From positions 1 through 7,836 of the IMG/VR virus record IMGVR_UViG_2548876956_000009: a stretch of DNA of 7,836 bases. One strand, written 5' to 3'. Positions 1 to 3,000 of the stretch are shown in pieces. The stretch's first letter is position 1. Every line of letters begins with the position of its first letter. The stretch is from a virus. Taxonomy: Duplodnaviria; Heunggongvirae; Uroviricota; Caudoviricetes. The position numbers were made by a program.

Positions 1-3000
1 CAGCTTTTCCGCAAGGTCTGACGGCGACGCCGCCCTGACAACATCATAATGTTTAATCGACATCGAATTTCTCCCGTGTACAGGAACAGAGTTAAAAAGC
101 CGGAACCGGAATCAAATCACAGGATGACCATCTGCCAGTGGCTGGTCGTAAAAAAAAGGCCGCGCCATGCGCAGCCGGAAATAAAGGGATAACGATGATA
201 GTTTGAGAAAAACAGAAATAACACTTTTGTGGCAAAGCATGGTGCCGGGTGCCTCCCGGTGAATTCAGTACCAGCACCTGAATCCGCGATTATCACATAT
301 ACCTACTTGCTGATTGCCCCTCCGCACAGGGGGATTCACCATGCAGTAGTATTTTTAATAAACAGCAAATAAAAAAATCAAGCATTATGCAGGCTGTTTC
401 TTTTTATCACCGGCTACAGCAATACCACAATGCCGCAGACCAGCACCCCATCCGCCAGCACCGACATGATTCTGCTGGTGAAATCCACCATCACCACCAG
501 AAACAGCAGGAGTGCAGCCACAGCCAGGCGCAGTTTTACCGTCACAGGTGATTCTCCAGACGAAGACCCAGAACACCGGCAATCTCTTCCAGCACCTTGC
601 GCTCTTCCGGCTCAATTTCGCCGTCTGCCTCCGCAATGGCCACCGCCACATCCAGCACCTCTTCCGCTTCACGCGTATCGTGTTTCACATCCTCGATCTC
701 ACGTAACGCCGCACGACGACCAATTTTAAAGTTCGTATCCAGCTGACCGATAATGGTTGCGCTAATCGCATTAATTTCTGACGTAAACGCGGACAGCGCA
801 GGCTGATTACGCAGTACCTGTTCGATCTTCGCTTTCTAGGAAGCCTCACATTCACCATCTGCACAGGCCACCAGGTAGGCAGCATTAATAACCGCCTGTG
901 CCAGATCGCGTTTCTCAAACTTTCCTTTTTCCGGTTAACGTGACACACCAATAACTCTTGTCGAAAAAGCCAGCAAGCTGAAAGACCGGTATTCACAACC
1001 ACCAGCGCGTTTACTGTACTGGCGTGATTTCAGTCATAAAAAAACCCGCCTGGCGACGGGTGTAAAAAATCTTCTAACGTCAGGCATAAAACGCCCATCG
1101 TTAGGGCAAATTTACCACAGATTCGGGAAAAATCAACAAAGCTATCTGGTCACCTTTTTCAGTTGTTGTTCTGCCCATGCTTCTTCAATATCAAACTGCA
1201 CCACCAGCGTATCGTAAAAACGTTTAACTGTTTTTTTCCATGTATCAAGAGATATGGCATCGGTTACATTACATATGGCATTAAATGCCTCCGTTGAAGG
1301 TAATCTTTCATAGCCACGACCACCACAACGCTGGCAGTCTCTGATAACAGGCATACCACGTTTTACCGACTCTTCACGATGAATGGCAACACCGCGCCCA
1401 CGACAATCTTTACAGGCGGTGGAAACCTCCCCCTTCCCTCCACACTCCGGACAGGCAACTTTTACCACCTCCCTGACTTTTTTCCATTCCTCCCAGTAAG
1501 ACGGATACACGCCTTTTGTGCACTTTGCCCACACTGGCGGCTTACCATCCGGATACTGGATCTTGTTTGTAAAAACCTCGCTTTCAATAAATTTTTTTCC
1601 GTGACAACAGGGGCACTGTTTTTTGCTCGCCGCGCTACGGGCATAATCTTCAAACGCATACGAAGCCATAATACGCATCACTGCCGGTTTTATTTCTGCC
1701 GGGAGTTTTCTTAACGCCGCCACGCGATCACACCGACTGAGTGCATATTCTGTCAGCAATTCTGTTGCCCGCTCTCTGTCATTCATACTAATGCCCATTT
1801 TCCCAAGGAACGCAGAAAACCCCATCTCAGCCCAATTCTGTGTCATGCCCTGCGCGGCCATCACATCAGTGATACTCAGCGTATCTTTCGACGTTGAGGC
1901 CGATGCATCAGTCAGGCCGGGGGATTTTGGGGAGTAGTATTTCGGTAAATCTTCCAGTTTCATTTTTTGACCTGCCCTTCAAGCATTATGGGGTAAATTT
2001 TCACCCCCAGACGTCCACCAGATACTGGCTGAGCACGAACGATATTGATTTCATCAAACTGCTCATCGTCCATTAGCAACCCCGCATGCGTCAGCGCATC
2101 CAGCGGCGCTTTCAGAATATTGTCCAGGTCACGGCGGCGCTTATCCGGTGGCTCGGCAATAATCTTTATCGCCAGCCTTCCGGACAGGCTTAATTTCAGC
2201 CGCTGCTGGCGAACAATAAGCGCCACAGCCCGGCGATAACGCTCACCGGCTTTTGATACAAAATATGTGCTGCCACGACGTCGCCAGTAGGTGTTCACCG
2301 TCGGCGGGTAAAGCAAAACAAACTCTATACGCATCAGTAACCTCTTTTACCCGAGCACGCCGGTTGCAAAGGCGTGATCAAGAAAACGAAAAATTAAATC
2401 AACCTGGGAACCATGCTTTTCTTCGAACGCCAGCGGATCCGCATGAAGCTCGTTGTGATGCTCCCGACACAGCGGTAGCGTGAAAATATCGTGAGATTTT
2501 GTCCCCATTCCGCCCTGACCATGACCAATCAGGTGATGGGGATCGTCGGCTGGCTTACCACAACACGCACACGGCTGTGTCTTCACCCAGCGTGTGTATT
2601 TCTCGTTAACCCAGCGGCGACGTTTAGGTCGTTTCATGAAAGATTCCGGAGGCTCAGGATCAACGGCAATGCTGACCACCGTCTTTTCCTGTGGTGGGTT
2701 CTGTTGCTGGTGGGCGTGAGGCAGCGGCGCAAGATTTTTTGTGCGCTGTTTCAGTATGCTGATGGCGGTCTGCTCTCCCGGTACGATGTCGCTTTCGCGG
2801 TACAAGGGGCGGATTTTTTCCGCACGTAACCCCAGAGAACGACGTAATACTGCCTCCGGAAGCGCGTCCGCCACCTGATTGCAGACCGCCCACCAGGATA
2901 ATTCAGCCAGAGATAATTCACGCTCCTGCGTACCGCTTATTGCGTGACCGATGACGTCAATCATCCATGCTGACAGGTTTTGATGAGCAAGTTGCTCGAG

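Follow-up and report, generated by a model that had tools for sequence, protein, structure and literature searches.

A terB/tciA pseudogene in the late region of Escherichia coli lambdoid prophages, with a probable 5' deletion and a separate nonsense codon

Described relatives and genomic setting

PHROG 632 (category "moron", name "tellurite resistance") groups stand-alone proteins with a TerB domain, among them the product of a 432-nt gene of E. coli NZRM3614 (WP_001302123.1, encoding MFGIFKKKTRRAATEIKKFEKRD..., with the start MFGIFKKK), TciA of phage JLK-2012 (AFB75444.1) and VUF53482.1 of phage Evi. The intact protein of 143 aa matches this family end to end, and its N-terminus, MFG(I/F)FKKK..EIKKFEKRD, is conserved in Escherichia, Klebsiella, Salmonella, Serratia, Pantoea and phages, which argues that the intact form is ancestral. 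The names tciA and tciB in phage annotation come from the tciA-tciB-tciC genes of phage P1, where tciA is described as terB-like. A CRISPRi screen of P1 scored tciA-C as non-essential (PMC10695390), and in one subgroup of P1-like phage-plasmids about half of the members lack the tci operon (PMC9603915). TerB of the terZABCDE operon (Klebsiella pneumoniae, PDB 2JXU) possesses the same Pfam domain, but the relationship is distant: the intact allele matches this solved structure (2JXU_A) over residues 15–137 with an E-value of 2.9e-7.

The gene studied here differs from terB of the terZABCDE operon in standing alone, without TerA/C/D/E/Z neighbours. No ter genes were found in the analysed DNA or in its annotated relatives, where the neighbours are Q, DUF3927 and nanS-p, and the gene is accordingly not a member of a ter operon. 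Searches of PADLOC-DB with the intact TerB gave only a marginal partial match (E = 0.005, 13.9 bits) with no stretch passing, and none with DUF3927; NCBIfam returned only sub-threshold similarities to DjlA and YmfL. For a ter or tci phenotype (tellurite or colicin resistance, inhibition of phage or of cell division) the literature searched gave only homology-derived names. The original prediction had associated the domain with phage-defence systems; given the lack of ter-operon neighbours and of a PADLOC match, neither phage defence nor tellurite resistance can be claimed for this protein. According to a 2026 preprint, TerB, RusA and DUF1627 are conserved next to the prophage sRNAs PasA and PasC, so the gene neighbourhood itself has already been described.

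The window, i.e. the whole analysed stretch of 7,836 nucleotides (positions 1 to 7,836 of IMG/VR record IMGVR_UViG_2548876956_000009), carries all its genes on the minus strand (Table 1). Its closest whole-length match in complete E. coli genomes (98.4% identity over 97%) is to paa-carrying Rac-like prophages. The paa gene lies inside the prophage early region and adjoins the fimbrial-protein gene, which in a close relative is marked by PGAP with a frameshift and an internal stop. Between paa and the DUF968 gene lies the type I toxin-antitoxin module hokD/sok. At 3398-3799 relatives have only a gene of 273–279 nt annotated, and the real gene is probably this shorter 3' part. The Q gene is annotated as "antitermination protein" in relatives. 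A terminator-like hairpin (176-158, minus strand) lies 3' of the STnc100 match, and of the nanS-p esterase gene the window includes just the opening 63 nt.

Table 1. Features of the window; all positions refer to its full length.
Feature	Position	Strand	Description
DnaC/YdaV-like ATPase	7464-6718	-	
DUF1627 protein	6746-5949	-	
Fimbrial gene, broken	about 5819-5250	-	several ORFs in the window
paa	5089-4331	-	AcfC-family adhesin Paa, virulence-associated
hokD toxin ORF and sok	4139-3837	-	Rfam sok antitoxin RNA match, 104 bits, at 3990-4139
Mechanically called ORF, 133 aa	3398-3799	-	PHROG 1212 matches residues 68-133 only
DUF968	3396-2347	-	
rusA	2334-1960	-	
Antiterminator Q, quuQ/ydfT type	1963-1142	-	273 aa; Pfam Antiterm PF03589, E=4.7e-50; PHROG 127/25523 "anti-termination protein Q-like"
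Putative PR'-like late promoter	1097..1136	-	read from sequence: TTGATT 1136-1131, 16-nt spacer, TGnTAAATT 1117-1109, AACGAT 1102-1097
tR'-like intrinsic terminator	1037..1061	-	stem-loop 1061-1044 and T-run; scan: 7-bp stem, 5 GC pairs, TTTTTTT tail
Leader remnant (not terB)	923..1036	-	short ATG ORF (start 1037-1035), "GFFDK" string, TAA 937-935
105-aa GTG ORF	685-1002	-	first ~27 residues (…CWLFRQELLVCHVNRK) in the frame of the 65-aa gene; remainder is terB out of frame
Deletion junction, A-rich microhomology	920..926	-	leader ...GGGAAAAAG|ACATG; terB ...ATTAAAAAG|TTTGA
terB/tciA remnant	542..922	-	codons 18-143 and TGA 544-542; no start codon, no RBS of its own
Nonsense codon	836..838	-	TAG for GAG (Glu46 of the intact protein), from DNA alignment with intact alleles
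DUF3927/tciB small membrane-protein gene	414..545	-	Pfam DUF3927, E=6.8e-12; PHROG 1470 "TciB-like", E=1.6e-21
sRNA	204-370	-	Rfam STnc100, 104 bits against a gathering score of 47; in the tciB to nanS-p interval

The terB remnant, the leader and the junction between them

A tblastn search with the intact 143-aa protein of NZRM3614 aligned only residues 18-143, with window positions 922-545 and 96.8% identity. Conceptual translation of the remnant, with the TAG read as Glu, matched the Pfam TerB profile PF05099 (E = 1.1e-14, 55.1 bits, cutoff 24.4) over profile positions 2-109 of 118, which confirms the TerB assignment proposed earlier from inspection. As had also been noticed, the frame closed by TGA 544-542 has no ATG, and two stop codons, TAA (937-935) and TAG (838-836), lie in that frame on the minus strand. 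Functional members of PHROG 632 have an uninterrupted ORF of about 141–148 aa, a start codon and the N-terminus MFGxFKKK...EIKKFEKRD; the window copy comprises residues 18-143 only, lacks a start codon and is interrupted at codon 46, and is thus no functional member. It is 97% identical to intact TciA over the shared residues, but is devoid of the RBS, the start codon and codons 1-17, while an overlapping DUF3927/tciB partner and a position between the tR'/tRNA region and nanS-p-holin are common to both. Relative to conserved intact homologues, the locus therefore carries a 5' deletion and a nonsense codon, both inherited, and qualifies as a pseudogene.

What precedes the remnant belongs to a different part of the operon. 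Positions 923-1145 consist of the end of the Q gene, the PR'-like promoter, the tR' terminator and the leader, and are collinear, at 94–99.6% identity, with sequences from HUSEC2011, H105, NZRM3614 and the Stx2a phage Stx2_EH1910 (99.6% for the 225 nt downstream of quuQ in the latter). In HUSEC2011, H105 and Stx2_EH1910 the matching stretch follows the same Q gene and ends at the RBS and ATG of a hypothetical gene of 65 aa, after which come a DNA methylase, 2–3 tRNAs, and then stx2AB (Stx2_EH1910) or other cargo. NZRM3614 has an antiterminator of another type upstream, and phage Evi shares the leader for its initial 111 nt and no further. All leader copies in HUSEC2011, H105, NZRM3614 and Stx2_EH1910 contain GTTAACC, i.e. 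the "TAA", and GGCTTTTTCGACAAG, which encodes "GFFDK" (at about 978-964 in the window, in a frame other than that of terB). The presence of both in the leaders of other prophages identifies them as native leader sequence and not as lesions of terB. In the relatives, the reading frame of the 65-aa gene continues open ahead of that gene; it reads ...CWLFRQELLVCHVNRK and is distinct from the FFDK frame, and the long form of that gene from the upstream ATG of NZRM3614 (106 aa) matches PHROG 331 from position 1. The 105-aa GTG ORF of the window, for which no PHROG match was found, is a by-product of the deletion.

A consensus promoter scan left the PR'-like site unreported, its 8/12 hexamer matches being below threshold; the site and the adjoining AACGAT may resemble lambda PR' and its sigma70 pause element. 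From this putative promoter to tR' (1037-1136, minus strand) a short terminated transcript of roughly 60–70 nt is predicted, whose equivalent in an Stx2a phage is, we assume, the regulatory sRNA StxS.

At the junction, the leader of the relatives reads …CCGGAAAAGGGAAAAAG|ACATG, intact terB reads …GAAATTAAAAAG|TTTGAG, and the window reads …CCGGAAAAAGGAAAG|TTTGAG, with AAAAAG (about 926-920) common to both parental sequences. BLAST matches split sharply at this point: those limited to the leader end at window position 921, and those limited to terB start at 923. Partial megablast matches to the query 380-1145 likewise covered either query positions 223-766 (terB and DUF3927) or 1-225 (end of Q and leader). 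In NZRM3614 both flanks occur in one operon, at 2319-2448 (leader, before the 65-aa gene) and 4001-4544 (terB from codon 18 on) of locus L003, 1552 bp apart, and relative to this genome the deletion amounts to 1552 bp. It extends from the RBS of the 65-aa gene to terB codon 17, and removes the 65-aa gene, the DNA methylase, the tRNAs, and the RBS, start codon and first 17 codons of terB. Splicing the HUSEC2011 (locus L004) and NZRM3614 sequences directly would give a junction 2 nt longer than that of the window, which leaves the exact breakpoint and the donor haplotype uncertain, and among the sequenced genomes compared none has this exact Q module followed by an intact terB together with the methylase and tRNAs. 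The arrangement suggests a deletion rather than an insertion elsewhere, and the shared A-rich motif points to microhomology as its mechanism.

Thus, both stops recorded in the original prediction are real, but the TAA belongs to the leader and the TAG alone falls within terB. The proposed FFDK-containing N-terminus linked to terB by a frameshift dissolves into a leader joined by deletion to codon 18, and no frameshift is needed to explain the remnant. The alignment to intact alleles that had been called for yields one exact substitution, GAG to TAG at codon 46, and a 5' deletion in place of the expected indel. The placement of the remnant as the first formerly coding sequence after the Q gene and tR' holds, with the terminator stem-loop preceding it.

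Spread of the two lesions and alternative readings

Megablast of positions 380-1145 against 5426 complete E. coli genomes recovered the whole stretch in 484 of them, and a 166-nt probe across the junction was fully covered in 477 of the 5426. The TAG allele was sought with a 49-nt probe in which every 28-mer seed includes the mutated T, so that a match requires the T; at least 1006 copies were found, in 577 of the 5426 genomes, with up to five per genome. Each lesion is also met alone: in contig AOEE01000099 the identical junction is combined with GAG, while O157:H7 PV15-279 and O111:NM FWSEC0005 carry the TAG in a full-length terB behind a different Q gene of 230 aa. Accordingly, the junction and the nonsense codon have separate origins, and the nonsense allele moves between prophage types. 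The full-length TAG copies (2392-2820 in both L013 from PV15-279 and L014 from FWSEC0005) have a TTG start and an N-terminal variant, VFLVKKARR…. A single haplotype with the intact codon accounts for at least 1418 copies in 586 genomes, and the overlap of this list with that of the junction, e.g. in FORC_044, demonstrates that intact and broken alleles coexist in the same genomes. Presumably the lesions have been reassorted by recombination among co-resident lambdoid prophages.

In relatives, the segment that matches 542-904 is labelled by PGAP as a pseudogene ("tellurite resistance TerB family protein", "internal stop") and is followed by a DUF3927 gene. Two such RefSeq entries, C6W76_RS12100 from strain 90-3040 and E3170_RS16430 from O157:H7 E32511, are 98.4–99.9% identical to the window in DNA, with the same junction, TAG and neighbours; one change is private to the window (GAT to GAG, Asp to Glu, at about 630). 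The PGAP note mentions the internal stop only, and not the 5' deletion. The locus is thus an ordinary dead copy of a phage accessory gene, already annotated in hundreds of RefSeq genomes. The earlier view of a multiply damaged, decaying cargo gene, as opposed to a sequencing slip, is borne out by the recurrence of the same lesions in hundreds of complete genomes and by the PGAP annotation, although its list of lesions was not correct.

We consider it very probable that the remnant is a non-functional terB/tciA gene resulting from the 5' deletion and the separate TAG at codon 46. The ancestral late region would have had the order Q, PR'/tR', leader, 65-aa gene, DNA methylase, tRNAs, terB, DUF3927 (tciB), sRNA, nanS-p, holin, lysozyme. 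A microhomology-mediated deletion may then have joined terB, from codon 18 on, to the RBS region of the 65-aa gene; the GAG to TAG change, which is also in circulation among full-length terB copies of other prophages, would have been acquired separately. Only the Q-dependent late transcript, heading for tciB, nanS-p and the lysis genes, would cover the remnant, and, with no start codon and a premature stop, no TerB protein would be expected from it; we infer a sequence that is transcribed but not translated into TerB. Suppression of the amber codon by a phage tRNA was considered and rejected: the window contains no tRNA genes, and the anticodons at the related loci are CAT, TCT, TCG and TTT, none of them CTA.

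The original prediction, a full-length terB inactivated in place by the TAA, the TAG and a frameshift off an FFDK-type N-terminus, with the start codon mutated, now seems very unlikely. Aligned by MAFFT to the intact 5' end, the window does show some weak similarity (GG..T.TTC.A.AAGA) with a length difference of 4 nt, and G-F/I-F-x-K occurs in N-termini of the TerB family; yet a nearly identical sequence with FFDK and TAA precedes the 65-aa gene, which is unrelated, in genomes whose same operon also contains an intact terB at another site, and BLAST matches break at 921-923. Moreover, none of 120 homologous proteins (from a search of 5.8 billion proteins) has an FFDK-type N-terminus; they start with MFG(I/F)FKKK, MGFFGFAKK or similar. 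The collinearity in NZRM3614, HUSEC2011 and Stx2_EH1910 refutes the model of three lesions in place. That the gene is intact in the organism and its lesions stem from sequencing or assembly can be practically dismissed: single-base stops and indels are common types of error and nothing specific speaks for such an error here, whereas the identical junction and the identical TAG recur in the 477 and 577 complete genomes noted above, from many laboratories, platforms and serotypes (O157:H7, O145:H28, O111, O103). Both lesions are thus inherited and not technical.

Equally negligible is the chance that the stops separate genuine small ORFs. Fragments are called in some records, e.g. as "TerB" proteins of 97, 116 and 120 aa, but homologues in several genera and in phages Evi and JLK-2012 form one continuous protein of 141–148 aa that corresponds to PHROG 632 over its full extent, and these intact homologues refute that reading. 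We also give little credence, though somewhat more, to the idea that the remnant still yields a product, either a 48-aa ORF from GTG 688 (MKHDTREAEE...) or translation maintained through coupling to the overlapping tciB start. The 3' part of terB shows good conservation, the terB stop still overlaps the tciB start in an unaltered GTGA, and PHROG 3920 is a family of 48 residues with an extent identical to TerB residues 96-143, so that this ORF has repeatedly been called in phage genomes. However, the conservation is explained by the recent spread of nearly identical prophage DNA (97–100% identity), GTG 688 has only GAGG two nucleotides upstream and hence poor spacing, 48 residues are less than half of a TerB domain, and PHROG 3920 is most simply explained by gene calls made on broken copies. 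This family ("unknown function", 48 positions) corresponds to the GTG ORF 688-545, and was also seen with locus L003 of NZRM3614 (3951-4379).

The terB-tciB slot and its significance

Downstream of the deletion, the partner gene has kept its arrangement: the GTG start of tciB overlaps the terB stop (GTGA, 545-542), as expected of a tciA-tciB pair, and the product is a hydrophobic protein of 43–55 aa. In the window it has 43 aa owing to a TGG to TAG change (CTGTAGCC vs CTGTGGCC), and in most relatives 55 aa; the same TAG is present in strain 90-3040, HUSEC2011 and H105 have DUF3927 genes of 132 nt (43 aa), and PGAP annotates both lengths as normal proteins. Beyond window position 1, close relatives have a 1.85-kb SASA/NanS-p esterase gene, a holin and a lysozyme after DUF3927. 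The pair thus occupies an accessory ("moron") position after Q and tR' and before nanS-p, holin and endolysin, a gene order shared by five E. coli genomes and three phages. The terB-DUF3927 slot lies between the phage tRNAs and nanS-p. The remnant had been thought to stand in place of the lysis cassette; its late position is correct, but in close relatives nanS-p, holin and lysozyme follow the accessory slot and have not been replaced.

Stx2_EH1910 has the same quuQ-type Q and leader as the window, and its stx2AB genes sit where terB-tciB sits in non-Stx relatives; the window differs in having no toxin gene and in the deletion of the 65-aa gene, methylase and tRNAs. It is conceivable, though improbable, that the wide spread of two independent, freely recombining tciA knock-out alleles in EHEC/EPEC prophages reflects selection against TciA and not neutral decay, the remnant then persisting solely to serve tciB as a spacer or coupling element. 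If so, possible causes would be interference with the host's own ter island or toxicity from leaky late transcription.

As a routine prophage pseudogene already flagged in RefSeq, the locus itself matters little. What is corrected is the account of its loss: terB was killed mainly by a deletion that also took the 65-aa gene, the DNA methylase and the phage tRNAs, and the TAA and the "frameshift" are not terB mutations. The terB-tciB pair shares a late-operon slot with stx2AB, and intact alleles, which had been named as worth finding and which we found in NZRM3614 and in phages Evi and JLK-2012, are easily obtained for work on this gene pair.
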